64,000 bases of DNA from a phage: the sequence record NC_111505.1. The stretch is one strand, 5' to 3'. Of the stretch, positions 1-41,149 are shown piece after piece. The translations under genes and the position numbers were made by a program. Positions within the stretch are counted from its first letter, which is position 1. Each line of letters opens with the position of its first letter. Under the pieces are notes generated by a model. That model made no database searches. It was not told the DNA's origin and worked only from the letters and a program-made list of their open reading frames with translations.

Positions 1-409
1 ACGACTCGGACCTGGTGCTTATAGCACGTTGTTGGGAGACGGTCAGACTGGGCGCATCGAGGTGCAAGAGGTTGCAACAATCCGAGGTCGAGATTTTTCT
101 GATCGTTGCATCATCTTAGTTGATGAGTTTCAGTTGACAACCTGTGCAGAGGCTTTGGCAATTGCCACACGGCTTGGTGAGCATGCACAAATGATTTGCA
201 TGGGAGACTTACGACAGAACGATCTTAAAGGCACCTCAGGACTTCAGTGGCTGATCGACTTCGTAACGAGGCACGAAATCAACGGTGTTGGTATCGTAGA
301 TTTTGACGAGCCAGAAGATGTGGTTCGCTCAGGTATTGGTAGACTGTTTGCACTAGGCCTTATGACTGACCGTAATAAAGGTGTGTGGACCCCTGAGGCA
401 GGTTTATAA
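1..409 (+). CDS. phoH: PhoH-like ATPase, C-terminal part (5' end lies upstream of the window)
   Basis: Frame open from window edge (codons from nt 2) to TAA 407-409; ...ILVDEFQ... and ...GTSGL... resemble the C-terminal half of PhoH-family proteins. Confidence 0.6.
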   Translation, partial: RLGPGAYSTLLGDGQTGRIEVQEVATIRGRDFSDRCIILVDEFQLTTCAEALAIATRLGEHAQMICMGDLRQNDLKGTSGLQWLIDFVTRHEINGVGIVDFDEPEDVVRSGIGRLFALGLMTDRNKGVWTPEAGL

Positions 410-421
410 TATATATAGGAG

Positions 422-445
422 AGAGGGTGATATTATTCACCCTCT
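422..445 (+). terminator. Stem-loop after phoH (AGAGGGTGA / TCACCCTCT, 6-nt loop)
   Basis: Perfect 9-bp inverted repeat followed by ATTTA; U-tract weak, so it may be an attenuator or stability element rather than a full terminator. Confidence 0.3.
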
Positions 446-452
446 ATTTAAA

Positions 453-1382
453 ATGCGTTTAGGAGAACAGTTATCACGAGAAGAAGTGTTTATCAAGAAA
501 GCTACTGATAAGCATGGTGACAAGTATGATTACTCCAAAGTTGTATACAAAAACAACACAACACCTGTGAATATAGTGTGCAACAAGTGTGGTACAGTTT
601 TTAGTAAAACTCCTAAGTCTCACCTTATAGGCGCAGGATGCCCAGATTGTAAGAACAGGGAGTTAAGTGAGAGATTCCGAATGTCCAAGGAGGAGTTTGT
701 AAAAAGGGCAACAGAACTGCACAAGGGAAAGTACGACTACTCTCTTGTAAAAAGTTTTTCTAACAGGAACGACATTGTTACTATTATTTGCCCCATCCAC
801 GGAGAGTTCAAGCAGACAGTTGCAAATCATTTATCTGGTGGGTGCTACAAGTGTGGAAAAAGAGCGGCAGCTAAAAAGATGAGGAAGTCTAAAGATAGAT
901 TCATAGAGGATGCTACTCAACTGCACGGAGACATATACGACTATTCAGAAGTGGAGTATGTGAATACCCACACTCCTGTAACCATTATCTGCAAGTCTTG
1001 CGGGTGTAAGTTTCTTCAACAGCCTGCAAACCACCTGTTCGGTAATGGTTGCCCAGAATGCTCTACTTCAGGATTCAGGCAGAGTACTAAAGAGAGCTGT
1101 CTGTACCTTCTTGTTGATGATCTTACCATTCCCACGGTTATAAAAGTTGGGGTGACTATCAATCTACAAAGCAGACTATACAACATAAGAAGGAACACAA
1201 ATTTTCCTGTTCACGTGCTTAAAGTATTTACTTTCGAACAGGGGTGTGCTACCATGCAGCTTGAAAAATTGGTGCATAAAGTCTTTGCAGATCGCAACTG
1301 CCACTTCGAAGGTTTCGACGGGGCAACGGAGTGGTTCTGGTACTCTCATGATATTGTAGGGTTTCTAGAAGACAATTGTTGA
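453..1382 (+). CDS. T5orf172 (GIY-YIG-like) domain protein with three N-terminal Cys-rich zinc-ribbon repeats
   Basis: ATG 453 is in frame with track ORF 381-1382 (track start is GTG); three repeats of KYDYS...C..CG...HL.G.GCP.C; C-terminus ...GFDGATEWF... resembles T5orf172/MUG113-type domain; no clear SD. Confidence 0.5.
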   Translation: MRLGEQLSREEVFIKKATDKHGDKYDYSKVVYKNNTTPVNIVCNKCGTVFSKTPKSHLIGAGCPDCKNRELSERFRMSKEEFVKRATELHKGKYDYSLVKSFSNRNDIVTIICPIHGEFKQTVANHLSGGCYKCGKRAAAKKMRKSKDRFIEDATQLHGDIYDYSEVEYVNTHTPVTIICKSCGCKFLQQPANHLFGNGCPECSTSGFRQSTKESCLYLLVDDLTIPTVIKVGVTINLQSRLYNIRRNTNFPVHVLKVFTFEQGCATMQLEKLVHKVFADRNCHFEGFDGATEWFWYSHDIVGFLEDNC

Positions 1383-1407
1383 CAAACAGATAAGCTTTAG
1401 ATATTAT
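1380..1407 (+). promoter_or_regulatory. Sigma70-like promoter TTGACA-N17-TATTAT
   Basis: TTGACA at about 1379-1384, 17-nt spacer, TATTAT at 1402-1407, just upstream of the SD and ATG at 1438. Confidence 0.55.
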
Positions 1408-1437
1408 TATTGGACAAAACAAGGAGAAGGGCACAGC

Positions 1438-1749
1438 ATGGCTACAATACAAGAGAGACTGAATAAAATATACTGCCTGTTTGTCTATAACGGTGAGACA
1501 ATTTTGGCAAATAAGGGATCCAAGAATGTGTGGACCAAGGACAGTGGTGGTAACATAATCAACTTAGCGTTGCTACGTGAGCGCAGACACAGATTCTTTA
1601 TCGAGTCTCGGATTATTGAAAGCAGTACCTGCTACAGAACAGGCGATAAAGTAATTGTTGACAATGATACGTGGTATGTGGTAGACTGGCAATCACTGAG
1701 CTGTGATGCTTCTGACAATCGTAAGTATTCTATAGTGATTGCTAAATAA
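1438..1749 (+). CDS. hypothetical protein (103 aa)
   Basis: ATG with SD AAGGAGAAGG 8 nt upstream. Confidence 0.6.
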   Translation: MATIQERLNKIYCLFVYNGETILANKGSKNVWTKDSGGNIINLALLRERRHRFFIESRIIESSTCYRTGDKVIVDNDTWYVVDWQSLSCDASDNRKYSIVIAK

Positions 1750-1809
1750 AGGTAAATGTGAATCAGGTTTAAATAAATAGCTTTCAACTTCCAATATTAA
1801 GGATTTCTC

Positions 1810-2859
1810 ATGAATTTAACACCTCGCAGCACCATGGTACACGGCATGAAAGAAAAACAGAACGGTTTCGAACCTATGAGTAATAAAATGTTTGGTATGC
1901 CGGGTGGTATTATGGAAACATACAGCTACCCAACACCTGTTGTTGACCACGTTCTTTATATCGACGATTTGGACGACCTGCAAGATCATATGTCTCGTCT
2001 ACAGACGATCCGTATGGCTCAGCCAGAAGAAAGTATCCGTGTAATCATTAACAGTCCTGGCGGTTGCGTTCACATTGCTATGGCGTATTTGCAGGCATTC
2101 CGTGAGTCTCAGGCAAGCGTTGTTGTACACGCTGAAGGGATGTGCTGCTCGGCAGGAACAATCTTATGGCTGGGTTGCAAAGAACGAACTGTGGCTCCGG
2201 ACACAGAATTTATGTTCCACTACTATCAAGGTGGCACCTATGGTAACGGTGTGAACATGAATACCCAGATCAACTACTGGAAGAAACGTTTTGAACGCCT
2301 GATTGAAAAATACTATGGTGGGGTGTTAACAGAAGATGAGATCGCATCCATCACAGCTGGCGGTGAAGTGTGGTTAGATGGAGAAGAGCTGGCATCTAGA
2401 ACTGGTGCTATCATTCTGGACGATGAAAACATTCAGCGCATTCAGAATGGACAGAAACCGAAAAAGCTTTTGGCAAAAAGTGATGAAGAAGGTGTGCTAG
2501 GCGAAGCAGGCCTGCCAGAGATTCACCAATGCACATCTTTGGACGAGCTGGTTCATGCTGTTGAGTCTGCAAAAGAAAATGGTATGAAAGGTGATGTTCA
2601 CACTGTGTTCCTGAATCTGCAGATGGAGAGTGGTGAGACCGTTAAGATTGCACTGGGTGAGATTACCTCGGAAGATCTGCAGCGATTCTCTGTGGTAGAG
2701 CTTCAGGACATTTTGTCCCAATTGAAAACCACCCTGAACGGAGGCGAAGAAGTTCAGGTGAAAGATAAGACCCGTAAGCGTCTGGTGGACAATATTATTA
2801 AAACAGCAAAAGAGCTCAATGAAAAAATCCTGGGCGCAGGAATTGTCGAAGAAGCTTAA
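1810..2859 (+). CDS. ClpP-like (S14 family) serine protease with C-terminal extension
   Basis: ...VIINSPGG... and ...CCSAGT... resemble ClpP signature regions; ATG with AAGGA 7 nt upstream. Confidence 0.6.
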   Translation: MNLTPRSTMVHGMKEKQNGFEPMSNKMFGMPGGIMETYSYPTPVVDHVLYIDDLDDLQDHMSRLQTIRMAQPEESIRVIINSPGGCVHIAMAYLQAFRESQASVVVHAEGMCCSAGTILWLGCKERTVAPDTEFMFHYYQGGTYGNGVNMNTQINYWKKRFERLIEKYYGGVLTEDEIASITAGGEVWLDGEELASRTGAIILDDENIQRIQNGQKPKKLLAKSDEEGVLGEAGLPEIHQCTSLDELVHAVESAKENGMKGDVHTVFLNLQMESGETVKIALGEITSEDLQRFSVVELQDILSQLKTTLNGGEEVQVKDKTRKRLVDNIIKTAKELNEKILGAGIVEEA

Positions 2860-2870
2860 ACATTAATTCT

Positions 2871-2896
2871 AAAGCCCTCTTCGGAGGGCTTTTATG
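2871..2896 (+). terminator. Rho-independent terminator
   Basis: AAAGCCCTC-TTCG-GAGGGCTTT hairpin followed by TTTAT, directly after the protease stop codon. Confidence 0.7.
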
Positions 2897-2910
2897 ATCT
2901 GGAGATTTGC

Positions 2911-3444
2911 ATGACTTGTGCTAGAAAACCTGATGAACAACGTAACGCTTACGATGAGTATGTGACACCGGAGTGGTGTGCAGAAGGGCTGTATGACCTT
3001 ATTCCGTTCCCAGAAGACTGGACTTACTTAGAGCCTTGCAGGAATAGTGCCTCAGGTGTGTTCTACTCCCGTATGCCGTTAGGATCCGCATGGGGAGAAA
3101 TTCAAGAAGGTGTTGACTATCTGAATACAGAATACAACCATGTTGACTGTATTATCACCAACCCGCCGTACAGCCTGGCTCGTGAGTTTGTGGACAAGGC
3201 GTTGAAAGATGCCGATGTAGTTATTATGCTTTTGCGTCTTAATTTTCTGGAAAGCAAAGCCAGATTTGAATGGTGGCTTGATAATGCACCTACCACTGTG
3301 ATCACAATATCTAAGCGTCCATCATTCCAATCGAATGGCAGAACTGACGGGCAAGCATATGCATATTTTGTGTGGGACAAGAAGAACCGTTTAGACCTGC
3401 CGCCATTTATGTGGTTGGCACCTCCAGAGGTAGACCTGAAATGA
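2911..3444 (+). CDS. DNA N6-adenine (or N4-cytosine) methyltransferase
   Basis: Catalytic ...DCIITNPPY... motif; ATG with GGAG 7 nt upstream. Confidence 0.6.
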   Translation: MTCARKPDEQRNAYDEYVTPEWCAEGLYDLIPFPEDWTYLEPCRNSASGVFYSRMPLGSAWGEIQEGVDYLNTEYNHVDCIITNPPYSLAREFVDKALKDADVVIMLLRLNFLESKARFEWWLDNAPTTVITISKRPSFQSNGRTDGQAYAYFVWDKKNRLDLPPFMWLAPPEVDLK

Positions 3445-3725
3445 AAATGAGTGCTAAGGACAAGTTGCACCAGTTAGCGCTAAAACGTCCTGTAACGCTT
3501 CCTGACGAGCTTAACTCCATTTATGATGCGATTGTAGGGGAGATACAAAATAAAGCGTTAGCAGGCTTTCTGGGATGTGGATTTTCGATAAATCTACCCT
3601 CGCACCTCTCAGACTACTTCCCACACATCGTTGGGGATTTGAGGGCAGGAGGTTTGCAGGTGGATGTTGTTGGCATCTCTCCGGAGAAAAATAACACGGT
3701 TGCCTACTTGACAGTGACCTGGTAG
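3441..3725 (+). CDS. hypothetical protein (94 aa)
   Basis: ATG 3441 overlaps the MTase stop (ATGA coupling); in frame with track ORF 3372-3725. Confidence 0.55.
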   Translation: MKMSAKDKLHQLALKRPVTLPDELNSIYDAIVGEIQNKALAGFLGCGFSINLPSHLSDYFPHIVGDLRAGGLQVDVVGISPEKNNTVAYLTVTW

Positions 3726-3761
3726 TAGTGTATTTTGTTTTCAACAAGAGGGGGGTCATCT

Positions 3762-4001
3762 ATGTATAAGTCATTTTCAATTTACTCAAGACAGGCAAAA
3801 CACTACACGGAGATTCTGATCACTCAGAAAAAGTCTGTAGAAGGTGAGTGGGAATATCATCATAAAATGTTGCGTCCAGACTGGGTTTTTGATAGACTTA
3901 TTGCTATGATCCCTCTTGGAGAAGTATACCCTCTGACAGGTCATAGGGATGCTTGGGATTTAATTGATTACATAGATTCATTTAAGGAGCCCGGTGTATG
4001 A
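3762..4001 (+). CDS. hypothetical protein (79 aa)
   Basis: Track ORF begins at TTG 3735; first ATG at 3762 has SD AGAGGGGGG. Confidence 0.55.
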   Translation: MYKSFSIYSRQAKHYTEILITQKKSVEGEWEYHHKMLRPDWVFDRLIAMIPLGEVYPLTGHRDAWDLIDYIDSFKEPGV

Positions 4002-4396
4002 AGATTGAGATCACTAAAGAAGGTAAGAAAGTGTCTGGCGATTATGCAACAGTAATTCGGGATGTAATGTTTGAAGTAACCCAGATTGGTACGTCTAAGG
4101 TTGGTCAAACGGTAAGTGTGCAAGGTAATATTGCCACAGGTGAAAAGATAATCATCGTGATCAAAGGACAAGACCCTGTGGAAGGAACAGTGGGCCGAGG
4201 AGGCTACCTGTGCATTTCTGAAGAACCGCGTATGCTGGTTGCTGATGACTCCACAGGTAAAAAGCGGGTATGTAACACGGACGAGGTGATGATTATCTAT
4301 CCAGTCAACCCAGATGATCCGGCAACATGGATTGTGGGAAATGAAATCTTCTCTTTAGAAGAGTTATCCTTCCCAGCCCCGCGCTCTGTTCAGTAA
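3998..4396 (+). CDS. hypothetical protein (132 aa)
   Basis: ATG with AAGGAG 8 nt upstream; overlaps previous stop by 4 nt. Confidence 0.6.
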   Translation: MKIEITKEGKKVSGDYATVIRDVMFEVTQIGTSKVGQTVSVQGNIATGEKIIIVIKGQDPVEGTVGRGGYLCISEEPRMLVADDSTGKKRVCNTDEVMIIYPVNPDDPATWIVGNEIFSLEELSFPAPRSVQ

Positions 4397-4435
4397 TAAT
4401 TTATCTTACCAGGGACGGTAGAAGTAGGAGGTAGC

Positions 4436-4669
4436 ATGAAAGTTAAATTTCTTACAGATTTAGGGTACCCTTCCTTGGTTGACTGCGTTGGTAAAATTGT
4501 GGAAGCAAAACGACTATCTGCAAACGATAATGTTGTCATGGTTAAGGGAAAAGATTTACTATCTGCAGGTGCAGAGTCTGGCAGGATCTCTCCTGACTAT
4601 ACGTATTACCTGTCTTTAAGTAATCTACCAGAACGAGGCGGCAAAGGTCTTGAAGTTGTGGAGGAGTGA
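4436..4669 (+). CDS. small acidic protein, MKVK...VEIVE paralog family
   Basis: ATG with AGGAGG SD; N-terminal MKVKFL and C-terminal ...LEVVEE shared with at least 9 other ORFs in the window. Confidence 0.6.
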   Translation: MKVKFLTDLGYPSLVDCVGKIVEAKRLSANDNVVMVKGKDLLSAGAESGRISPDYTYYLSLSNLPERGGKGLEVVEE

Positions 4670-4674
4670 CAGGT

Positions 4675-5193
4675 ATGCTGCTAGTTGATTGGAAAGATTT
4701 TTATGGCGACAAAGACCCGAAAGCATTTATATATAAGCCTTGGAGATACTCAGAAAGTCAAATTGCTGCAATAAACCTTACAGCAAAGCGCCGAAAAATT
4801 ATCGAAAGTAAATATAGATACGCTCAGCTGGTAGCTGGTGTTTCTCCACAGGTAGAGAGTTTTGTGCTTAAACTGTACGAAAAGTTTATGAGTTACGATC
4901 TGTCATTCGTGAAGGTTGGTGATGATTTATCTCCTGGTAACAACGTAACCCGTTGGAAAGTTTCGTGTGACAAAAAACTCCCGATCAGTATTGAGGTGTG
5001 TCGATACTGGGGGTATCATGAGTGTGGATTTTATGACTACCATGATGTGGAAATAAAGCCACGCAATCATCTAAGCGACCCAGAAAAAGATTACTTGAAG
5101 CATGTGATTCTTTCCATGTTTGGAGGGTACATCACAGAGAAAAATAGCGAAGACAGAATATCCTTTCTTAACAGTTTGAACCAAGAGATGTAG
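4675..5193 (+). CDS. hypothetical protein (172 aa)
   Basis: Track start is GTG 4666; ATG 4675 has GGAGGAG 8 nt upstream. Confidence 0.55.
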   Translation: MLLVDWKDFYGDKDPKAFIYKPWRYSESQIAAINLTAKRRKIIESKYRYAQLVAGVSPQVESFVLKLYEKFMSYDLSFVKVGDDLSPGNNVTRWKVSCDKKLPISIEVCRYWGYHECGFYDYHDVEIKPRNHLSDPEKDYLKHVILSMFGGYITEKNSEDRISFLNSLNQEM

Positions 5194-5194
5194 T

Positions 5195-5431
5195 ATGACT
5201 ATAGACACTGTGCTGGTTTGGTATTGCGCATTGACCTTTCTGACAATGGTTGTTTTAGCAACTCTTTGCATCATATCTTGTAGAAAAATTAAGTTTGACG
5301 ACTTTATAACTATAATCACTGCCGCACCTTTTTGGCCTGTCGTTCTCTTCATTGTTGTTATGTGCTTGGTAGATCACTGTAAAACCGTCAGAAAAATGAA
5401 GGAGGCAGATAGGAATGGTAACAGTGACTGA
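5195..5431 (+). CDS. small membrane protein (2 predicted TM helices)
   Basis: ATG 5195; hydrophobic stretches; weak SD. Confidence 0.5.
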   Translation: MTIDTVLVWYCALTFLTMVVLATLCIISCRKIKFDDFITIITAAPFWPVVLFIVVMCLVDHCKTVRKMKEADRNGNSD

Positions 5432-5545
5432 AACTGTTTATACTGTTCTTAGGGAGATTGCATTCTATACAGACCTTAGTTTAGCATCTTCATGGGAAAA
5501 GAGTATGTATTTAAAATGGTGCGTGAAATTAGAGGGGGCCTTCTA

Positions 5546-5665
5546 ATGTTTCAAGCCATGTTTATTGAAATGCTCTCCGGAGTATTATTGCTGGTAGCCA
5601 TTTTGGGTGGTGCGGCGCTAATGTATAATTATCTTGAAAAAGGGGACAGTAATGACAAAAAATAA
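5546..5665 (+). CDS. candidate 39-aa hydrophobic peptide (below track cutoff)
   Basis: ATG with AGAGGGGG SD; MFQAMFIEMLSGVLLLVAILGGAALMYNYLEKGDSNDKK. Confidence 0.3.
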   Translation: MFQAMFIEMLSGVLLLVAILGGAALMYNYLEKGDSNDKK

Positions 5666-5837
5666 ATCCTTAGAACAGGCTGAAAACCTTCTCCACGAGC
5701 TGGTAAAGGAGTGGAAAGTTGAATACTCAGATTTTAATGCAAGAGAGGGGGAAGATTATTGGCCTACGGAGCGTTCAGAAGGAGAGTGGTATCAAGATTT
5801 CATAGAATGGTTATATCAGACGTGCGATGAGGGGTGA
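5652..5837 (+). CDS. hypothetical protein (61 aa)
   Basis: Track start is TTG 5634; ATG 5652 preceded by AAAAAGGGGA. Confidence 0.5.
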   Translation: MTKNKSLEQAENLLHELVKEWKVEYSDFNAREGEDYWPTERSEGEWYQDFIEWLYQTCDEG

Positions 5838-5839
5838 AG

Positions 5840-6295
5840 ATGTTTGTTAAATATGTAAAAACGTGCCTCAACAACCTTGGTAGAGAGCATTGGTACACCT
5901 TGCTTGAAAAAGGAGAAATTTTAACAAAATCTGGAAAGATAACTCTGAGACCATTGGACGATAAAGACCCGTCACTACTTGTCATAGATGATTACGTCAC
6001 AGGTGTGTCGTACGAGGTTTCTGTGGAGAGGTTAATACGCAGATCTGGAGGTCCTTGTGATCGAAGAGAGTATGTTTTCGATTCTGTTACAGAGAAGGAA
6101 GATCCGTCTCTAATGTTTAGGATGGTAATCAGAGATATGAAATCATCTATGAATAGGATCGTGAAGGACATTAAGGAGCCTTTTTGGGTAAAAGTTAAGA
6201 AGTTTTTTGATTCTAAGATTAATATACTCGCCGTTGTGCTAGGCGTAATTCAACTTCTGTTAATTTTGCACTATCTTGAACTGTTGTTCAAGTAG
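5840..6295 (+). CDS. hypothetical protein with C-terminal TM helix
   Basis: Track start is GTG 5834; ATG 5840 preceded by GAGGGG. Confidence 0.55.
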   Translation: MFVKYVKTCLNNLGREHWYTLLEKGEILTKSGKITLRPLDDKDPSLLVIDDYVTGVSYEVSVERLIRRSGGPCDRREYVFDSVTEKEDPSLMFRMVIRDMKSSMNRIVKDIKEPFWVKVKKFFDSKINILAVVLGVIQLLLILHYLELLFK

Positions 6296-14795: not shown

Positions 14796-15011
14796 ATGAA
14801 GATAGAAATATTTGGTGGAGCTGACAACACTCGTGGCCTGATTTACCTTGAATTCGATGAATCATACCTGCCAGAGGTGTTAAATATAGACTCTGTTGCT
14901 GAGGCTTTGGGAGTAAACCCTAAAGAACTCCACTCTTGTGCTGAGATCGATGGTTGGGAAGAGACCATGAACATTGATTTCAGTGAAGTAGAGGATGAAC
15001 CGCTGGACTGA
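14796..15011 (+). CDS. small acidic protein, MKIEIF paralog family
   Basis: ATG with AGAGGAGA SD. Confidence 0.55.
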   Translation: MKIEIFGGADNTRGLIYLEFDESYLPEVLNIDSVAEALGVNPKELHSCAEIDGWEETMNIDFSEVEDEPLD

Positions 15012-15359
15012 CACACAATTAGCTGCCAGGCTAAAGTGCTGGAAGCACCTATAACACATCTTTCAACTAAATTTCCTACCACCACAATCACTTACCTCCC
15101 ACACATGACTGTTTGCTTGTTTAGTGAGCAGTCATGCCTTGACATTCTTGCCTATCCTGATAAAATTAAGTTCTTCTCTTTTCTTTTACCGAGTAATTCG
15201 GGTTTTCTGTTCTCTTCGGTTTGAAGGGGTATGGAGATACACCTGAGTGAACAGGGTGAACAACCGAACAGTTGGCTATGGCATTAGCATGGCGAAGCGG
15301 ACGGGTGACGAAAGAGGGGCCGGAGGACACCAGTCACTGCCATATGGTATATGGGTGAT

Positions 15360-15925
15360 AACCTGAAGAGTCTGAATAAGTGTTTAAGTACCAGTCAGAG
15401 GAAAAGGTGAATGGTAGCCGAAGGGGGAGGGGGGTTTCTTGTATCTTTAATTTGTATATTTTATATACACTTGTAAACCAATTTCATCTGAATCTGTTTA
15501 CCACACAAAGTGGATAAAGTCAAATATTCCCTATTAAACTTGAATTATTTATAGAAAATACCACAACACCACTTAAGTCTTTGATTTTACACACAAATCT
15601 TACAAATATCTTACCTCCATATTTAACATACCTGTAACATATTCCATACTCTACCTGCCTGGTCAATTTACCCACCACATTCTCCACATTTTCCCTTCCT
15701 GTACTACCCCTGCCCCGCCGGGAGTCCCGTCATATCTGGCTTTCCAGCAAATATCACACCCACAAATATCATCACCTGAAGAGTGATTCATCCTATAATA
15801 CCTGCCTTACCTGAAGAGCGCTCCATACCCCACGTAAATTTTTTAATTGACCCCCTGCCCCGCCGGAGGGGTTGGCTTTTCCCACACAGGCCTGAAGAGT
15901 CAGCCAGAAATATCTGAAGGGGGTC
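15360..15925. repeat. Dispersed CCTGAAGAG motif (5 copies) plus two CCCTGCCCCGCCGG copies
   Basis: Copies near 15362, 15777, 15812, 15892, 15914; GC-rich direct repeats near 15708 and 15852; irregular spacing as for protein-binding sites. Confidence 0.5.
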
Positions 15926-16096
15926 CAGTTCTGCCACGATTTTGACCTGACCTACAGGAGCGCTGCCAGGCGGACGAAATGGGAATACTTCTCATTCTTA
16001 TAACAATTCTCAAATATCAAGGCAGTGAGGCAAATTAATAGGCGAGGCCGTTCACACAGTGGCGCAACATTTGCAAGCTATTTTGTGTGGATGAAT

Positions 16097-16130
16097 GAGA
16101 ATACTTATCATTGTGAGAATCGTTATCATT
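16097..16130. repeat. Tandem 16-mer GAGAATNNTTATCATT (2 copies, 2-nt spacer)
   Basis: 16097-16112 and 16115-16130; the same 16-mer recurs at 27733-27748 and 27869-27884. Confidence 0.55.
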
Positions 16131-16534
16131 ACGGGCAATTTAACATAATACCCATTATGCGCACCACTGGCGATACATACATGGATTGATAACATGGGTT
16201 ACTGTTTACGCATATAACAATTGTATTTCTTATTATTTGTGGGGGATATAGTTAGCGACCAATAGATTAGATATTAACCTGCAGACTTCTGACCGTCCAG
16301 ACGTCTAAACGCCCACACAACAAGGGTTATACATACACTCCTGAATGTAAACAGGGCAGCAAAAATGCTACCATACCAGATTGTAAATTTTCCATGCAGC
16401 ACTTGACAAAGAGGAGAAAAACTTGTCTGACACAATGTCACACAATATGCCATAATCTGACACCTTATACACTTTCGACACAATAACGACTGTTATTATT
16501 TCATGTTTCATTGTTCACGTGCAGATTGTTCCCA

Positions 16535-16890
16535 CATAGACTGTTTACGCCCGGATAGTTTACACCTTGACAGTTTACACAAAGATGATAAGCCATGACA
16601 TTCGTTTGCATGATAACACCCTTGAGACGAGGGCCATGCTCCCGAGTTTAACAATTAACAAGATAACAATTGACAGGCCGACAATTAACAAGTTAACAAT
16701 ATATGACATAATATAAAAGCAGGGCAACTATTAGCAGATCATAGTTGCCTTGCTTATTATGTCATGATTAACTGAATACAAGGCAACTATGATCTGATCA
16801 ATAGTTTGCAGGCAAACTATCACGGGGGTGATGGTTACTGCTTTTATATTATGTCGCGACTCCGTCGCGCCATGACATTCGTTTGCATAG
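16535..16890. repeat. Cluster of direct repeats and palindromes (operator/iteron-like)
   Basis: Three (C/T)(T/A)GTTTACRC repeats at 16541-16582; CATGACATTCGTTTGCAT twice (16594, 16871); ACAATTAACAAG twice; two palindromes GCAACTAT-N9/10-ATAGTT(T)GC with GATC cores (16724-16748, 16783-16809). Confidence 0.5.
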
Positions 16891-17499
16891 TTGCCTTATT
16901 GTTACAGGTAAAACAATTACATTGTTAACTATTTCTTATCTTTCTCTTAGTCATCTAATGATTCCAGTCAGTATAGTTATGTACAGTAAACATTAGACGA
17001 CTAAAGATTTCTCTGATTATAGTAACCTATCGTGACAATTTCAGACTGTTTACGAAAAATGTTGACACCTGGGCGGGTTTATGTTATGCAGTTTACACGA
17101 ATAATTATTTCATACAGGTATTGACTATTCCGTTATTCTGTGGTTGGAATAAATACTTTGCAGGCTATAGAATGGTGTGCGTACGTGAATTCTGAGATCT
17201 GGCGGCTATAGTTACACCCGATTTTTCGCGCAGAACACGCTTTTTGGTTTGTGTAAGTGTATGACTTATAAAGATTTTTAGTTGTTGACACGGTATTGAA
17301 GATGTGCATCAGGTTAAATTTTGTGCAATAACTGCATTACGTGCAATTTTGGGAGAGAAAACGGGTAAAAATAGCACCGCTACCACACAATGAAAGGTTA
17401 TGCAATAGCTATTTTACATGTATATTTGTACAGTGTGCGGGATTGATGGCTCGTCAATTATTCCACTTGTCAGGTAGGGCCGTTTATGGTATGGGGAAG

Positions 17500-17529
17500 A
17501 GCAGACAAAAAGAAAGGGGCCTAAGCCCC
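17500..17529 (-). terminator. Rho-independent terminator at the end of the - strand transcription unit
   Basis: GGGGC-TTAG-GCCCC hairpin followed on the - strand by TTTCTTTTTGTC. Confidence 0.6.
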
Positions 17530-17549
17530 TTGATAATTCAGTTAAAAAA

Positions 17550-17969
17550 TTATAATGATTCGTATATTTCAAAAATCCGATTTGCCAGGTCGTTACGGTA
17601 GCGGAATTTTTCCTCACGTTTGATCATCAGATCTTTAAAGCCGTATTCTTTAAGCACTTCATTAACTTTATGGCGGCACACCTTCATATTGTCCTGAGCG
17701 TCACCAATAAACCTGTTGCTATGGTGCATGGCTTTAATTTCTTCTTCCAGGACCAGGGCAACTATGCGGACCGGATCAAGCTGATAGGCGGTAACATCCA
17801 TGCGGCATTGTAAACGGCTTTTTACGTCTGCCACCGGATATACTGCAACCTCCTCCCCGTCAACATTGACAATAATTAGTTTACCATCGATTTCGAATCC
17901 TTTCGCCGCCGGACCGTGACAAAAAGCGTTATCAAAGCTATATGCCGGATTATTAGATTTAATGTTCAT
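17550..17969 (-). CDS. hypothetical protein (139 aa)
   Basis: ATG with AAGAGG SD. Confidence 0.6.
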   Translation of the reverse strand: MNIKSNNPAYSFDNAFCHGPAAKGFEIDGKLIIVNVDGEEVAVYPVADVKSRLQCRMDVTAYQLDPVRIVALVLEEEIKAMHHSNRFIGDAQDNMKVCRHKVNEVLKEYGFKDLMIKREEKFRYRNDLANRIFEIYESL

Positions 17970-18112
17970 GGTGTTTTTACCTCTTAGTTAATTTTATTAC
18001 AACTTCTCTTCAAAAAAGAATATAGCAAAACTGCCGATCCCTGTCAACCAGGGATAGCATAATTTTTATGTGATCAAGGGGCTTTATTACCCCCTGACCG
18101 TAACTTGTTGTA

Positions 18113-18794: not shown

Positions 18795-18928
18795 CGGTTT
18801 TTATAGTTCTTATATGACAGGCAGGCCCGGTGATTGTCTCCCCCTGTTCCCAAGTGCCGCCCGTTTAATAAGAATAGCAAAAGGGGCCGAACAAGTCAAC
18901 CCCAAAATCAGTACCAAAACACTTTTAT

Positions 18929-19240
18929 TTATACGGTCCGATCATTGGCCTTTGTCCAGGACCTGGCGATCCGTTTCCCGGTCACCTGGAACGGAGGCTG
19001 CATTGTGTGTAATGAGTCCAGAGTAAGGGAGGACCGTTTACGGCGTATCTTCAGGATCGCTAACGTATTGTCCATCTCACGGCCAGGTCCTGGGCGGTAT
19101 GGTGTGCCTCCAGCGTTAAGGTTGATGATCTCATGTATTGAGATCCGGCGTTGTTTTGCTTCCGCATCTTTGAAGATAGCCAGCGGAGGCGCTATGCGTT
19201 GCCGATACCAATCTAAAACGGTTGGCGTAATAGCGATCAT
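18929..19240 (-). CDS. hypothetical protein (103 aa)
   Basis: ATG with GGGGGT SD; overlapping + strand ORFs 18766-19026 and 18834-19289 judged less likely; 12-bp inverted repeats CCAGGACCTGGC / GCCAGGTCCTGG lie inside. Confidence 0.4.
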   Translation of the reverse strand: MIAITPTVLDWYRQRIAPPLAIFKDAEAKQRRISIHEIINLNAGGTPYRPGPGREMDNTLAILKIRRKRSSLTLDSLHTMQPPFQVTGKRIARSWTKANDRTV

Positions 19241-19428
19241 ATTTTACCCCCTATGTAGTCCGGTCGGTTTTTCTCTGTCATACGCTTAAGCAATTCTTGC
19301 ATGTTGCTTATGGCTTGTAGTGTATCCTCTTCAAGGGATGAATCAAGATAATCAGGATCATTCTTCACCTTGCAATGATTATGATAACGCAGTACCGCCA
19401 GTACTTTTTTAACTTCTTCCGCTGTCAT
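19237..19428 (-). CDS. hypothetical protein (63 aa)
   Basis: ATG start; ATGA overlap with downstream gene; weak SD. Confidence 0.4.
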   Translation of the reverse strand: MTAEEVKKVLAVLRYHNHCKVKNDPDYLDSSLEEDTLQAISNMQELLKRMTEKNRPDYIGGKI

Positions 19429-19436
19429 TATCGCGC

Positions 19437-19571
19437 CTAAAACAATGAGTTAATATATAACACCAGATCGCTGACTACCAGGACAACATTAATCAGCACA
19501 TACCTAACCATAAAGGGAAAGATCGCCAACATTGCCGCCACGATCCCCATGGTAATAATTATCTTTCTCAT
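19437..19571 (-). CDS. candidate 44-aa membrane peptide
   Basis: MRKIIITMGIVAAMLAIFPFMV...; ATG 5 nt after the upstream stop; no clear SD. Confidence 0.3.
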   Translation of the reverse strand: MRKIIITMGIVAAMLAIFPFMVRYVLINVVLVVSDLVLYINSLF

Positions 19572-21736: not shown

Positions 21737-22087
21737 TTATTTTGCATTCTTTCCTATATTTCCGCCACGGTACCAGCGTTTACGGTGAAAATGGTAATAA
21801 TCACCGTCGGCATTGAACATCAAATGATTTTCAATAACCAGCTTACGAAGGTGTGCCGGATCTTGTTCCATTCTTGCCAGATTCCGGCGGCTGTTACGTA
21901 GGCGGATAAATTCCATATTCAGGCCGTTGATTGCAGTATGGATGTCAAAGTAACCACCTTTGAGACGTTCACGCATAGCGTTAAGCTCGACACGGTATAC
22001 AGATTTCTCACAAATCAAGGTATTAGCCAGGGCGCGGACCTGGGCAAGGGGGTTAAGCTCGTTAAGGTAATATAGTTTGACTTTCAT
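21737..22087 (-). CDS. hypothetical basic protein (116 aa)
   Basis: ATG with AGGTGA SD; followed on the - strand by hairpins (21721-21736, 21677-21705). Confidence 0.6.
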   Translation of the reverse strand: MKVKLYYLNELNPLAQVRALANTLICEKSVYRVELNAMRERLKGGYFDIHTAINGLNMEFIRLRNSRRNLARMEQDPAHLRKLVIENHLMFNADGDYYHFHRKRWYRGGNIGKNAK

Positions 22088-22104
22088 AAAATCACCTGCT
22101 GAAA

Positions 22105-28185: not shown

Positions 28186-28518
28186 ACTGAGAGAGAGATG
28201 TATCAAAACTTACTGATAATAATTAACTTATTGTCATAAAAGGCCGAAGGTAAGTTGGGAAAGTTCTGGTAGAAGGGTGAGAGTGTGTGCGGAAAATCTG
28301 GAACGGTGATTTGAAGTACGGTGCGAATGATAGAATGAGCAGCGCAGCTTATCGCGCCTGTATTGAAAAAATCCATTTTAGTTTTCGATCCATTTTCTGA
28401 TTTTCTAAGGATTTCCAAATATCTGCAAATATCTGATAAATAAGGGAAAATCCATTACATATTTTCCCTCATCGCCTAAAATTTTTATAATTTTAAAATA
28501 AATACTACCATAAATATC

Positions 28519-29163
28519 TTAAATAAATTTCACCAATGTTATAGTCTCCTTATTATTTTTCAAATCATTCTCAAGGATAGTTATTGCACGTTTAATGGCG
28601 AACAGCCAAATCTCATCTTTGTTTTTAATAGCCTGAAGTTTCATCTCCTCAAGTTTCATTTCTTGCCACACCTTGTGTGCTGTCTGTGGATCATCGAAAT
28701 GACCGCCATGAACAATTTTTCCATCTCGATGACAATGCACGAGATACTTGTTTACATCTTTTCTAAGTGTCACACCCAAAGGTAAATCCCCTCGTGCTGC
28801 CTGTCTTATGCCAAATAAGGTGTTTATTTGTGGTGGGACAAACATACATGTTTCTGGGGAGTATATTCTGTTTCCAGGGATTTTCAGATCTTTGTCAAGA
28901 GTGAACTTCTTAGAGTCTCTTTTCCACTCTTGTGTATCCATCCATTTCCAGAATTCTGAGAACAACCACCAATCTTCTACAACTTCACAACCTGTATGGT
29001 ACTTTGAGTTATCGCCGTAGCACCTCTGGAATAATGCTTTCCATGTAGCGTAGTGGGGTTCTGGTACTCTCTTACCATTAATAGATTGGTACATTGGGAC
29101 TTTGTCTTTTAAATCGTTTACTCCACGACCACATACTTTTCTGTCTTTAACAGGTATTCCCAT
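28519..29163 (-). CDS. AP2-type DNA-binding domain protein, putative free-standing (HNH-like) homing endonuclease
   Basis: ...GVTLRKDVNKYLVHCHRDGKIVHGGHFDDPQTAHKVWQE... resembles AP2 domains of phage HNH homing endonucleases; track start is TTG 29166, ATG 29163 with AAAGGAGGG SD. Confidence 0.45.
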   Translation of the reverse strand: MGIPVKDRKVCGRGVNDLKDKVPMYQSINGKRVPEPHYATWKALFQRCYGDNSKYHTGCEVVEDWWLFSEFWKWMDTQEWKRDSKKFTLDKDLKIPGNRIYSPETCMFVPPQINTLFGIRQAARGDLPLGVTLRKDVNKYLVHCHRDGKIVHGGHFDDPQTAHKVWQEMKLEEMKLQAIKNKDEIWLFAIKRAITILENDLKNNKETITLVKFI

Positions 29164-29488
29164 CAATCCCTCCTTTTCCTTTGTACATGCGTAGAGGTAT
29201 AGTTTTTATAACATTCCATCTCCCCAACCCTTCCCAGTTCCAGTTGTGGGCGTGATACCCAGTTATGCATGCACTGCTGGAGTGATCATAGGCATAGGAG
29301 AACGCTATGCGTAACAGATGAGGCCAGTCTTTCCACGGCTGTGGTCCGTAAGCCTTTCTCCAACACCGACACAAACTAAATGTCTCAAGAATAGGCAGGA
29401 TAACAAATCCATACACCACCACCAAGATGATCAGCGCAATGATTGTCAGGAATACATACCCTGCAGTTGAAATGATGATCTCTGTCAT
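29147..29488 (-). CDS. membrane protein (N-terminal TM helix)
   Basis: ATG with GGGGAGG SD. Confidence 0.55.
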   Translation of the reverse strand: MTEIIISTAGYVFLTIIALIILVVVYGFVILPILETFSLCRCWRKAYGPQPWKDWPHLLRIAFSYAYDHSSSACITGYHAHNWNWEGLGRWNVIKTIPLRMYKGKGGIDGNTC

Positions 29489-37126: not shown

Positions 37127-37480
37127 TTAGTGACAATCGCCCCAGTTACGACCACACAAGTATTCACCTGTGATCTGGAACGGAACGCCCATCATTTTAG
37201 AAGCTTGCCAGAAGCAATGCACCACCATTTCACCCACAGGGCTCCAGATAAGTTCAAGCTTTCCGTCATCGTTCAGAATAGGATCGTACACCGTGTTTCC
37301 GTCTCTGTCAACCACTTCGTTTCCGTTCTCATCCTTGCGTGCCTTTTTGTACTTATGACCGTCAAACACATGAAGTTTGGCCTCCTGTTCTGCCTTAAAT
37401 GCTTCCAGTTCTTCAATTGTGTCGAAGGTGTACACAGTCTTATACTTAGGCGTGTCAGGGACTTGAAGTTGGTACTCATC
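37127..37480 (-). CDS. DNA polymerase I-family (family A), 3' exon (motif C HDE to C-terminal ...NWGDCH)
   Basis: Frame begins DEYQLQ... directly after the intron's terminal G; ends with a family-A-like C-terminus (...NWGDCH); no independent SD or ATG (track 'M' is TTG). Confidence 0.6.
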   Translation of the reverse strand, partial: DEYQLQVPDTPKYKTVYTFDTIEELEAFKAEQEAKLHVFDGHKYKKARKDENGNEVVDRDGNTVYDPILNDDGKLELIWSPVGEMVVHCFWQASKMMGVPFQITGEYLCGRNWGDCH

Positions 37481-37756
37481 CAATAGTTCAGGTAGGTCGT
37501 TAAGCTACCCCGCACCATTACGTGCATAGCCATACGTTTTCACGTAGGATCGGACCATCTCATATTCCTATGATAAGCAACCACAGGAATCCTCCCATTT
37601 CGACCGCACTTGCTGGTCTACTTCCTTTCGGAATGGCCTCTGAGCGTTCGCTCTTTTGAGCGCTTCGTTGCGGATTACCTTGCCATAAGGTTTAGGCTTC
37701 CCGCAGTTAAAGAGGTTATTCGACATAGATTACTCTATGAAGCCACAATGTTATTT
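37481..37756 (-). mobile_element. ORF-less group I intron (IA2-like) interrupting the DNA polymerase gene at motif C
   Basis: 276 nt between pol ORF stop and 3' exon; 5' exon ends ...CAU (U), intron ends ...CUAUUG (G); GUGG near intron 5' end can pair with exon CCAU (P1, G-U at splice site); 3' part ...GGGGUAGCUUAACGACCUACCUGAACUAUUG resembles the T4 td intron 3' end as I recall it. Confidence 0.65.
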
Positions 37757-40700
37757 ATGGTAATAAATAATACGACGAACACCTTCATCGTACCACCCAC
37801 GCTTCACCATTTGGTGGTGCATGAGTATCCCAACTAAGTCACACAACGATGCACCACCATTTTGTTGGTATGCATTAAGTAAAGAGTGTTTAGATCGAGT
37901 CCAGATGGCATGACCATCAAAAGAGTAGATAAACTTCTTACCTGTTGCTTCCCAGAATTTCTCCAGATCCTCTTTGCGCCCCTTAAGACCAGGGTTGGCA
38001 TCCCAAAGCGCATCGATTACCTTTTGCCCTAACTCTGGGGAGATATCCAGCATGTCTGCAACTTTATCTTTTTGTGCCCCGTACATAACACCGTACGTGA
38101 CAGGCTTACCATCGTTACGGGAAATCTCCTTGCCTGCTACAGAAGAGTAAGCTTTGGCGTTATTACAGTTACCGCACACTGCCACTTTACCATTCCTTCT
38201 CACAATGATTGCTCCAGAAGGGACGGTAACGCAATAAACCAAAGAACCACTCACCTCGACAGACTCTTTAGATAGTGTCAGCAACCCTGCTCTCTGTTTG
38301 CTACCAATCGTGATTCTGTGCTGTACGGAACGACCTTTTTTGTGAATCGCCACCGTATTATTCCGTAAACCACACTGAGTAGCCAGCGCAGACACAACCT
38401 CTACAGATTTCTTCCTGCACTCGGCCTGAGAGTAGTAGGCAACTTTTCCACCTTCGGAAGATACCCACCCGTCCCAGTTAGATAAAGAAGCTATAAACAG
38501 GTTTTTAGATTCTTTATCAAGGTCCATCAGGTTGTAGGTGAAATCCTTATTGCTGTCCAAAAACTCAAATACCCAGGACGGAACGTGGAATTGGAACCTT
38601 CTCGCCAGTAAGCCCCCTTTTGTGGTTTTCCCGCCCTGCTCTACATAACTAAGGCTTAGAGCAGAAAAAGTATCTAAAAGCGTTGCAACTTTTCTGCCCT
38701 TCCCGACCTGAATCCTGCACACGATGCTGCCGTCCTTATTTGTATGCAAGTGTCCATCATCGTGAATAGCAATAAGCAAATTAATCTGGGCAGGAGATAA
38801 GGTTGTATTCCCATAAAACTCTGCCGCATGGATAAACCTTCTTCCTGAATTAGACCCTTTACCTGCTTTCAGGTCTTTTGCCAAATCTTCAAACAATTTA
38901 TTGCTTCTGTGATCCACGGTCAGCATCCTGTGTTGATCTGTAACCATAAAATCCACACCGCTGTTGTGGAAATGATACATATCCCCACAATAACCACGCT
39001 TAACGTAATTTAATGGTGTAACAAGGTTCATCGACGAGGTGTTGTGATCGTACTGGAACACTTGTGTTCCCGGATCAAGATCTTCAAACCTCACCCACCC
39101 TTTCTCCGTGAGAATTTGTGTATCTCCTGAATAACAGTGTGCATCGCCGTTACTTACAACATCATAATACAAGCCGTTGTCGAACTCAAAGGCACCCCAA
39201 GCCCCGATAAGCTGCTCTAAGTTGGACCCGTCAATACCGATCTCAAAGTATCCTGGAGGAACGCCCCACAGACTACGCATCTCTTTACCCATAACCACTT
39301 TAGGAGATGGTTTAGGCATGTTTGCACAAATACTGTGTTTCTGTCTGGAAGTGTTTGTCAATCCAGAACTTTTAGCAGGAAGCTTGTGGTCAATCTTCAG
39401 ACGTGGATGATTAAGAAGACCAGTATCAACCTTATCCTCCTTGATTGGATCAAGTACCGATCTACGGTTTCGCAAGGATAACCACAAGACGATATCTTTA
39501 GCCATCTCTCCGTTCAACTTTTCAAGATTCGGACATAGGTGTCCAAACGTATCTTTCAGTTGCGGAGAAGTAATAAGCGCTCTGGCTTTTCTACGTATCT
39601 TCCCAAACACTTCCTTTTTAATCCTTTCTGAGTTAGGGAAGCTTCGGAACTTGTGCACGGTTGTCTGAAACTTAGCATCAGTTTTGTTCCAGAAGTTGAT
39701 AATTAGGTCACAATACTCTGACTCTAAAAGCTCGTCCATATATGCATATACTCGTGCATCAACATCAGCATCAGGCAGAGCTTTCTTCTTGCTGTCCTTG
39801 GTTACATCTTTAGTTCTCCACATTGTTGGGAGCCAACCAGCGCTGATCAAATATCGCTTAATATCGTCCTGGTTGCTGATCTTCATAGGTATCTTGCAGT
39901 CAGGCATCCGCTTCTGCTGCAGATCACTTATTGCCTGATCCATTAGTTCTTTAGGTAAAGGATGTGGTGTCGAGGTACCTTTAATATACCCCCTTAAGAA
40001 ATCAGCCATCTTATCGGGGTCTTTGCAGCCCATCTCTTCACACCATTTTATCCCCATTTTGCTGACATCTCCTGTGGAGGTAAAGGCTCGCTTAGGTGGG
40101 GCTTTGAATTCTAAAGCACTCATGTCCACAGGATAGCCAAGCTTGTCTTTTAACCATTTCCAACCGTTATTAGAGATTGTCCCATCTTGGTTAAACGGCT
40201 TTTCAGGGAACTTAGGCCGCTGAGACATTGATAGCTCTTTTAGAGGAAGTTGTGGTTCAACACGATCAGCGATCTCTTTCATCCACGCATCGCAGCGGTC
40301 ACGTAAAGCAATAGCCCCATCTATGTCGAAATACACACCCTGTCGAGCCTGCAGCTCCATCAGGAAATGCTGCAGCATGCCTCGGCGTAATGCATTCTTC
40401 CAGGTGATCTTCTTGAAGCCTTTCGGCTTCTCTTTGGCAGGATCGTACATAAAGTTCTGCATGTCAGATTTGCCGTAGAATACACCTTTTGATTCTGCTA
40501 CCAACTCCTTCCAGAGCAACTCCTGGATGATAACGTCCTCGAACACACGATCCACATACTTCCACAGCGGAAGCTCACGCCAGTCATCGATTTGAACTTT
40601 CTGGTTACCAAGGGCATAGCCCCATGCCATAAGGCCATGAGGCCCAACAGGTTGCATTTTCTTGGTAACTGGATTGAATACTGCGTCCGGACAACCTTTT

Positions 40701-41149
40701 GGCAAAGGGCGGTCAGGCCACAAGATTCGACTCATCGCCAACGTATCAAATAGATTAACTTGGTGGTCGTTGATAGTCCCCATGCATTTAGGATCACGGA
40801 ACATATCAAAATGAACACCGGATAATCTTTCCATCAGCATAAAGTCATAGCTGTAGCAGTTATGACAGTTCAAAGCCGTAGGTGACCAGTCTGAATTGCC
40901 TGTAAGCCAGCCTTCCAACTCTGAAAAATCTGCTATGCGAGCCTCAAAATCTTTATAAAGAGTTTTCTTTGCCAGAATAAAGTTCTTAGCCTTTTCTACA
41001 TCCTCTTCAGAGTAGTGTGTGCGGTCATTTAGAGGAAGGAACAGCATAAAACGGTTCTTATTCAGCTCTTTAAACAAACCGCAGTGATAATAAAGATCTG
41101 GATCTTCCAAAAGCCCGGAGGCCTCCAAGTCGAACGACCACATGCTCAT
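37757..41149 (-). CDS. DNA polymerase I-family (family A), 5' exon including 3'-5' exonuclease domain and an in-frame intein
   Basis: FDLEASGL (Exo I), motif A ...IGIDGSNLEQLI..., motif B ...KPVTYGVMYGAQ...; ATG 41149 with AGGAGA SD; ORF stops (...IIYYHK*) exactly where motif C is expected. Confidence 0.8.
38168..39136 (-). mobile_element. Intein (323 aa) with LAGLIDADG-like homing endonuclease domain, between pol motifs A and B
   Basis: Insert begins CYSGDTQIL (Hint block A), contains TDQH (block B), LLIAIHDDG and FIASLSNWDG (dodecapeptide-like), ends ...VAVCGN followed by +1 Cys; motif A and B are about 370 aa apart instead of about 45. Confidence 0.7.

Follow-up and report, generated by a model that had tools for sequence, protein, structure and literature searches.

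The locus analyzed here raises two questions, i.e., what is encoded by a 309-amino acid open reading frame (ORF) located directly behind phoH in the genome of an Escherichia coli phage, and how this ORF came to lie there.

Organization of the locus

The window (i.e., the whole analyzed stretch of 64,000 nucleotides from sequence record NC_111505.1) belongs to an rV5/FV3-like E. coli myovirus of the genus Vequintavirus, as judged from a megablast search with its positions 1-6000, which matched 122 phage records. Nearly all of these were assigned to Escherichia Vequintavirus or were mislabelled 'Campylobacter phage' records of the same genus. The latter (MG065655.1, MG065659.1, and other records, including C2, C5, and A147; UNVERIFIED) are Vequintavirus genomes; the mislabelled 'Campylobacter jejuni' phage records are 90-98% identical to E. 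coli phages, and the Campylobacter host labels are likely wrong. Within and around the 309-aa ORF, the following features were distinguished:

1..409 (+): 3' part of phoH, nuclease-linked allele; the window starts within this gene
422..445 (+): terminator-like stem-loop 3' of phoH, 9 bp, with a weak T tract (RNA fold)
453..1382 (+): putative free-standing homing endonuclease gene of the T5orf172 family, 309 aa (Pfam, PHROGs)
1379..1407 (+): TTGACA-17-TATTAT, strong sigma-70-like promoter belonging to the downstream gene (promoter scan, 11 of 12 matches)
1438..1749 (+): conserved 103-aa backbone gene, outside the mobile block (located directly after phoH in FV3)

The upstream ORF fragment (positions 2-406) was recognized as the C-terminal part of PhoH (Pfam PhoH, E 1.2e-17), in agreement with the earlier note on this DNA, which had placed the gene next to phoH. 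The stem-loop that follows has a folding energy of -17.1 kcal/mol (z -2.9), and the alignment revealed a similar hairpin in FV3. The nuclease ORF begins with ATG, 8 nt 3' of this stem-loop, and ends with TGA; there is no obvious Shine-Dalgarno sequence ahead of the ATG outside the stem. The use of an alternative GTG start at position 381 would add 24 aa and overlap the phoH stop codon, and 309 aa is the length found in all five full-length copies of the gene as well as in the database cluster P0001.

On the other side, the stop codon of the nuclease gene falls inside the -35 hexamer of the downstream promoter. As this promoter is also present in FV3 (alignment), it represents pre-existing backbone sequence, and so do, therefore, the last codons of the nuclease gene. 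The promoter is followed by the 103-aa gene, for which the Pfam search gave no match, and then by a gene of a ClpP-like protease. The 103-aa ORF is labelled 'PhoH-like protein' in phages navn and SophiaRose and 'hypothetical' in FV3; the 'PhoH-like' label is probably a transfer error, which makes phoH look split. We considered whether the nuclease gene splits phoH, as the 'PhoH-like protein (x2)' annotations would have it, and rejected this, since phoH is complete upstream and the second ORF has no similarity to PhoH.

Presence and absence of the nuclease gene in Vequintavirus genomes

Among the 122 Vequintavirus records matching the region, the gene is carried by five full genomes and one fragment, and it is absent from FV3, rV5, and approximately 95% of the records. 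In FV3 and most of the 122 records the similarity to the window starts only at position 1364, and the gene order in FV3 is phoH followed directly by the 103-aa gene. A three-way alignment showed an insertion of ~921 bp, with the phoH hairpin on one side and the downstream promoter on the other. The site is precise and lies outside any intron or intein, and the insertion forms a presence/absence polymorphism among close relatives. Judged from these alignments, the gene is a mobile insertion.

Zinc-finger repeats

The protein is composed of three N-terminal repeats and a C-terminal domain:

474..656 (+): zinc-finger repeat 1, aa 8-68, CxxC...CxxC (Pfam, ligands, alignment, model)
681..860 (+): zinc-finger repeat 2, aa 77-136, CxxH...CxxC (Pfam, ligands, alignment, model)
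885..1067 (+): zinc-finger repeat 3, aa 145-205, CxxC...CxxC (Pfam, ligands, alignment, model)
1089..1379 (+): T5orf172/GIY-YIG-superfamily nuclease domain, aa 213-309 (Y218, K231-x-G233, R241, E271, E293)

The tandem repeats, which the earlier note had given as ~60 aa long, are real and have a period of ~68 aa (the YDYS motif is located at residues 25, 94, and 162). Local alignments of the repeat pairs scored 99-174 against a shuffle mean of ~23 (z = 15.5, 21.4, and 32.6), and none of 1000 shuffles reached these scores. The repeats share 45-55% amino acid and 51-55% nucleotide identity. The Cys/His module is likewise triplicated, as had been proposed, with four potential zinc ligands in every repeat: C43xxC46 ... 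C63xxC66 in the first, C113xxH116 ... C131xxC134 in the second, and C180xxC183 ... C200xxC203 in the third.

The assignment of these modules to zinc ribbons was not sustained. The zinc-ribbon profiles scored below threshold (Zn_Ribbon_TF, 13.9 bits vs. 29; zinc_ribbon_6, 11.7 bits vs. 27), and the repeats matched Pfam DUF4379, named 'probable treble clef zinc finger' (41.1 bits, curated cut-off 24.5), and DUF723 (27.4 bits, curated cut-off 20.9), with a weak match to CapR (E 0.45). In an AlphaFold2 model built on a 12-sequence alignment, each repeat is predicted to fold into a helix, a beta-hairpin, and a short helix; in all three of them, this metal-free model places the first ligand pair at the turn of the hairpin and the second where the following helix begins, which argues for a treble-clef layout rather than a zinc ribbon. 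The model has a mean pLDDT of 81 and a low pTM of 0.37, the latter being expected because the beads fold independently and are joined by flexible linkers. In a sequence search of the PDB with the whole protein, the sole match was a marginal one to the zinc finger of ribosomal eL37 (E 0.068), and the NCBIfam search gave no meaningful match. The repeats are predicted to bind zinc, and the fingers would presumably bind DNA.

T5orf172 nuclease domain

The proposed C-terminal T5orf172-like domain was found by Pfam (PF10544) at aa 226-301 with 37.3 bits against a cut-off of 20 (E 4.1e-9), and the sister model MUG113 gave 32.7 bits against 22.3 (E 1.1e-7). The protein also matched PHROG 681 (phrog_681, 'endonuclease') with an E-value of 3.7e-66. 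T5orf172 belongs to the GIY-YIG superfamily (PMC8263062). Of the two models for which an HMM search had been suggested, the canonical GIY-YIG profile (PF01541) was not listed even at E-values of up to 1 in the Pfam search. Among the structural matches of the AlphaFold2 model, GIY-YIG nucleases were the best, in line with the alpha/beta fold of GIY-YIG, but with weak scores.

An alignment of the domain with ICP1 Odn (Gp88), ICP1 ORF121 (gp122), and five database homologs showed that Y218, K231-V-G233, R241, E271, and E293 are conserved. In this alignment E271 is the counterpart of E180 of Odn, the same catalytic Glu position as E75 of I-TevI, and no nuclease-core residue has been lost. Odn actively cleaves DNA, and the E180A mutation abolishes this cleavage in vitro and in vivo (PMC8263062). 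Family membership and the intact core residues point to a nuclease.

The earlier note had left the choice between a nuclease and a DNA-binding regulator. The first reading appears to be right, and the second is less likely because the nuclease-core residues are intact. A regulator of this kind would bind specific DNA sequences through its zinc fingers, as CapR does, with a non-catalytic T5orf172 domain. Such proteins have precedents, as the CapR protein of PLE is described as a domesticated endonuclease relative acting as a repressor (PMC8096241; PMC10448857), and I-TevI doubles as an autorepressor (PMC8263062); the weak CapR match mentioned above would also fit. However, the T5orf172 domain is complete, with the Tyr, Lys-x-Gly, Arg, and both Glu residues conserved, and the gene is dispensable in most relatives, which makes this explanation very improbable.

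Family, abundance, and existing copies

The earlier view of the repeat architecture as unusual has to be reversed. Among T5orf172 homing endonucleases, 200 of 229 (87%) carry CapR, DUF723, or DUF4379/4397 zinc-finger domains, and many bear several tandem fingers, described by Barth, Dunham & Seed (2023) as 'beads on a string'; in the authors' proposal, target specificity depends on the repeats acting together, and the repeats evolve through recombination (PMC10448857). Repeated zinc fingers followed by T5orf172 are thus the standard architecture of the family. In a search of 5.8 billion proteins, more than 7,600 relatives were found at E-values below 1e-10, many of them 450-540 aa in size, i.e., longer than the 309-aa protein, and many having more than its three repeats. 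A tblastn search indicated relatives in 913 phage records (Vibrio, Salmonella, Klebsiella, Escherichia, and others), including the ICP1 'tcgB putative homing endonuclease'. The gene is an ordinary member of a published and very abundant phage homing endonuclease family, and hence of an already known kind.

Copies ~98% identical to the gene are present in six GenBank records (SophiaRose, navn, phiWec191, C2, C5, and one fragment), of which the SophiaRose copy is annotated as 'putative GIY-YIG nuclease family protein'. A tblastn search with the protein found no paralog elsewhere in the 64-kb window. The ORF is intact in all five compared copies, i.e., of full length and free of frameshifts and stop codons. 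Between the window and the other copies, 8 codons differ synonymously and 6-7 non-synonymously, and such small numbers do not suffice to prove purifying selection.

These data bear on the possibility of an inactive or decaying homing endonuclease, whose ORF would still be intact but whose cutting activity would have been lost, so that it would hitch-hike in genomes invaded once. The similar numbers of synonymous and non-synonymous differences would agree with decay, as would the lack of an obvious Shine-Dalgarno sequence and the variable position adjoining the conserved Glu (L270I in SophiaRose). Against this stand the five intact copies, the retention of every conserved core residue, and the 98.4% identity of the block in two backbones (see below), which indicates recent movement; we regard decay as unlikely. 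The free-standing homing endonuclease is, on present sequence evidence, probably active.

The linked phoH allele and transfer of the block

In a sensitive blastn search, positions 1-452 of the window (the 3' part of phoH) matched only the six nuclease-carrying records. The linked 3' allele is ~55% identical at the nucleotide level to the usual Vequintavirus phoH. Comparison of SophiaRose with FV3 placed the beginning of the divergence within the gene: up to phoH codon ~48 the sequences are for the most part 96-100% identical (92% in the final 50-nt window), whereas past this codon the identity amounts to 46-74% per 50 nt for the remaining gene, and the PhoH proteins are ~52% identical over the divergent part. 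No donor of this allele was found in IMG/VR, and the next best protein in the 5.8-billion-protein collection was 52% identical.

The block composed of the phoH 3' part and the nuclease gene is 98.3-98.5% identical between the window and SophiaRose, navn, phiWec191, and C2. Beyond the block, the identity of the same carriers to the window amounts to 93.4% over the next 1.6 kb and ~83% over the subsequent 2.5 kb. The downstream backbone of the window is FV3-like (97.6% identity over 6 kb), though FV3 is devoid of the nuclease gene. Informative sites define the border between the two types of sequence:

1393..1400 (no strand): right-hand recombination junction (informative sites)

All 10 informative sites up to position 1392 are of the SophiaRose type, and ~85 of the 96 sites from 1401 to 3000 are of the FV3 type; the crossover at 1393-1400 is therefore located 11-18 nt past the nuclease stop codon. 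The ~98.4% identity of the block on divergent backbones, together with this sharp junction, indicates that the block moved between two Vequintavirus lineages. Homing endonuclease genes have been described at boundaries of genetic exchange (PMC10448857), and, as far as the informative sites tell, the location of the nuclease gene at the edge of an exchanged segment is the same pattern.

The closest relative outside the genus (P0067, encoded by an unrelated metagenomic phage) is 46% identical overall, with a much higher likeness across the T5orf172 domain than across the repeats. Its gene starts ~50 nt past the end of a PhoH-like ORF (two ENA contigs, 1.2-1.4 kb). Adjacency to phoH as a general trait of the family was considered and rejected, as phoH was present within 5 kb at none of the 59 IMG/VR loci with relatives. 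Because P0067 also adjoins PhoH, this adjacency seems to be a trait of the nuclease lineage shared by P0067 and the window protein, not of the whole family.

Proposed mechanism

We interpret the ORF as a free-standing T5orf172-family homing endonuclease gene which homes via cleavage on the phoH side, and we assign to this reading a probability of about 0.75. The three N-terminal treble-clef-type zinc-finger modules, arranged like beads on a string, would jointly recognize a long DNA site, and the C-terminal T5orf172 domain, which forms a branch within the GIY-YIG superfamily, would cut close by. During mixed infection, the enzyme would cut the allele without the nuclease gene in a related Vequintavirus, within or beside phoH, the break would be repaired by recombination with the nuclease-carrying genome, and the repair would copy into the recipient both the nuclease gene and the adjoining, cleavage-resistant phoH 3' allele. 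Accordingly worded, the target would lie in or near phoH, and homing, not ordinary recombination, is taken to have moved the block, although homologous recombination of co-infecting phages could have produced the same block transfer without any action of the nuclease.

A more specific version, in which the nuclease cuts the common phoH allele and thereby drives replacement of ~80% of the gene by a divergent allele (~52% aa identity), is a tentative suggestion, rather doubtful as it stands. P0067, as a second phoH-adjoining nuclease, fits a phoH-cutting enzyme.

The nuclease might also have been domesticated or weaponized in the manner of Odn and kept to cut co-infecting Vequintaviruses or phage satellites. 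The intact core residues would suit such a role, Odn itself combines T5orf172 with a DNA-binding module and acts as a phage anti-satellite nuclease (PMC8263062), and PADLOC gave weak matches to the candidate defence family PDC-S57 (E 1.4e-4). However, the gene occurs in only ~5% of the sister phages, and its location at an intergenic insertion site of the classic type, with co-transfer of a flanking allele, is a signature of homing, not of a conserved accessory function. Moreover, its binding modules are the generic zinc fingers of the family and not a domain captured from a target element. A retained weapon is thus improbable, even if cutting of competitors and homing are not mutually exclusive.

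Other putative mobile elements and mosaicism

Further putative mobile elements were distinguished in the window and its relatives. A group I intron (positions 37531-37766, - strand; Rfam RF00028, full-length model, 64.7 bits vs. a gathering score of 50) is located between the two - strand DNA polymerase ORFs, 37127..37483 and 37751..41149. At this site, a 644-bp segment of FV3 and SophiaRose contains an HNH endonuclease gene; because ~70 bp replaces this segment in the window, the window intron appears to be endonuclease-less.

The polymerase ORF 37751..41149 contains an in-frame insertion of ~1 kb (~38140-39137, - strand), which is absent from FV3 and SophiaRose. It starts with 'CYSGDTQILTEKGW', ends with '...VAVCGN|C', and contains the LAGLIDADG-like motifs 'LIAIHDDGH' and 'SNWDGW'. 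The Pfam model Hint_2 matched it below threshold (E 1.1e-4), and PDB entry 6zgq (AceL NrdHF intein) matched with E 2.4e-5. Judged from these motifs and matches, the insertion is probably an intein with a homing endonuclease and an unusual Gly-Asn C-terminal junction. DNA polymerase introns with HNH genes, as well as LAGLIDADG inteins, have been documented in the subfamily (PMC7344957).

Upstream of the point corresponding to the window start, SophiaRose (L001, 234-1394) has a second 'GIY-YIG nuclease family' gene (386 aa), which is flanked by two fragments bearing the annotation anaerobic NTP reductase (nrdD); in FV3, a different HNH gene adjoins nrdD.

Segments 17537-18106, 18882-19465, 21747-22091, and 28423-29181 of the window have no FV3 counterpart (blastn), the first of them containing a 139-aa ORF (17550..17969, - strand) without a Pfam match. 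Reciprocally, a 1.3-kb adenine methyltransferase gene of FV3 (L065, 42620-43963) is absent at window position ~45300. These differences are further mosaicism of accessory regions. In FV3 (L065, 14329-16595), ~2.3 kb corresponding to window positions ~15000-17500 is without an annotated gene. ARAGORN found no tRNA genes in the window (1-64000).

Significance

The fitting label for the gene is T5orf172-family free-standing homing endonuclease, instead of 'hypothetical protein', and the 'PhoH-like' name of the downstream 103-aa ORF should be dropped. Beyond correct annotation the case carries little weight and implies no new biology. According to a published idea, boundaries of genetic exchange between phages are marked by nuclease genes, and the locus illustrates this cleanly in nature: the junction is sharp, lying within 20 nt of the stop codon, and a divergent phoH allele was transferred along with the nuclease gene. 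As an E. coli phage system, the locus could be convenient for locating the target site of a T5orf172 enzyme and for resolving its specificity finger by finger. If the phoH-cutting version were true, it would be a natural case in which a homing endonuclease brought in a foreign allele of a conserved auxiliary gene despite a large sequence divergence.

Comparison with known systems

The closest parallel is provided by the T5orf172 homing endonucleases of ICP1 (ORF121/gp122 and tcgB; PMC10448857), which likewise consist of a CapR/DUF723/DUF4379 finger array followed by a C-terminal T5orf172 domain, and whose genes are likewise free-standing, adjoin a conserved phage gene, and lie where a recombination block ends. 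The window protein, with its three repeats, is only ~26% identical to the ICP1 proteins, and its neighbor is phoH, whereas the systems of PMC10448857 adjoin a capsid, terminase, or RNR gene.

With Odn of ICP1 (Gp88; PMC8263062), the window protein shares the T5orf172 catalytic domain, the conserved Arg, and the essential Glu (E180, corresponding to E271). Odn is an anti-satellite weapon which binds DNA through a RepA_N domain acquired from the PLE satellite (PMC8263062); unlike Odn, the window protein has generic zinc-finger repeats, and the pattern of its gene in the phage population is that of a homing element.

In T4 SegA-G and the intron-encoded I-TevI, the nuclease is N-terminal, the reverse of the domain order found here, where, unlike in the canonical GIY-YIG family (I-TevI/Seg type), the nuclease domain is located at the C-terminus. 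The binding modules of I-TevI also differ, being a zinc finger, a minor-groove helix, and a helix-turn-helix, as opposed to the repeated, predicted treble-clef fingers of the window protein. Finally, CapR of the Vibrio cholerae PLE satellite contains a related CxxC...CxC zinc-finger DNA-binding module (PMC10448857); it is described as a repressor and not as a nuclease (PMC8096241), whereas the window protein keeps an intact nuclease domain.
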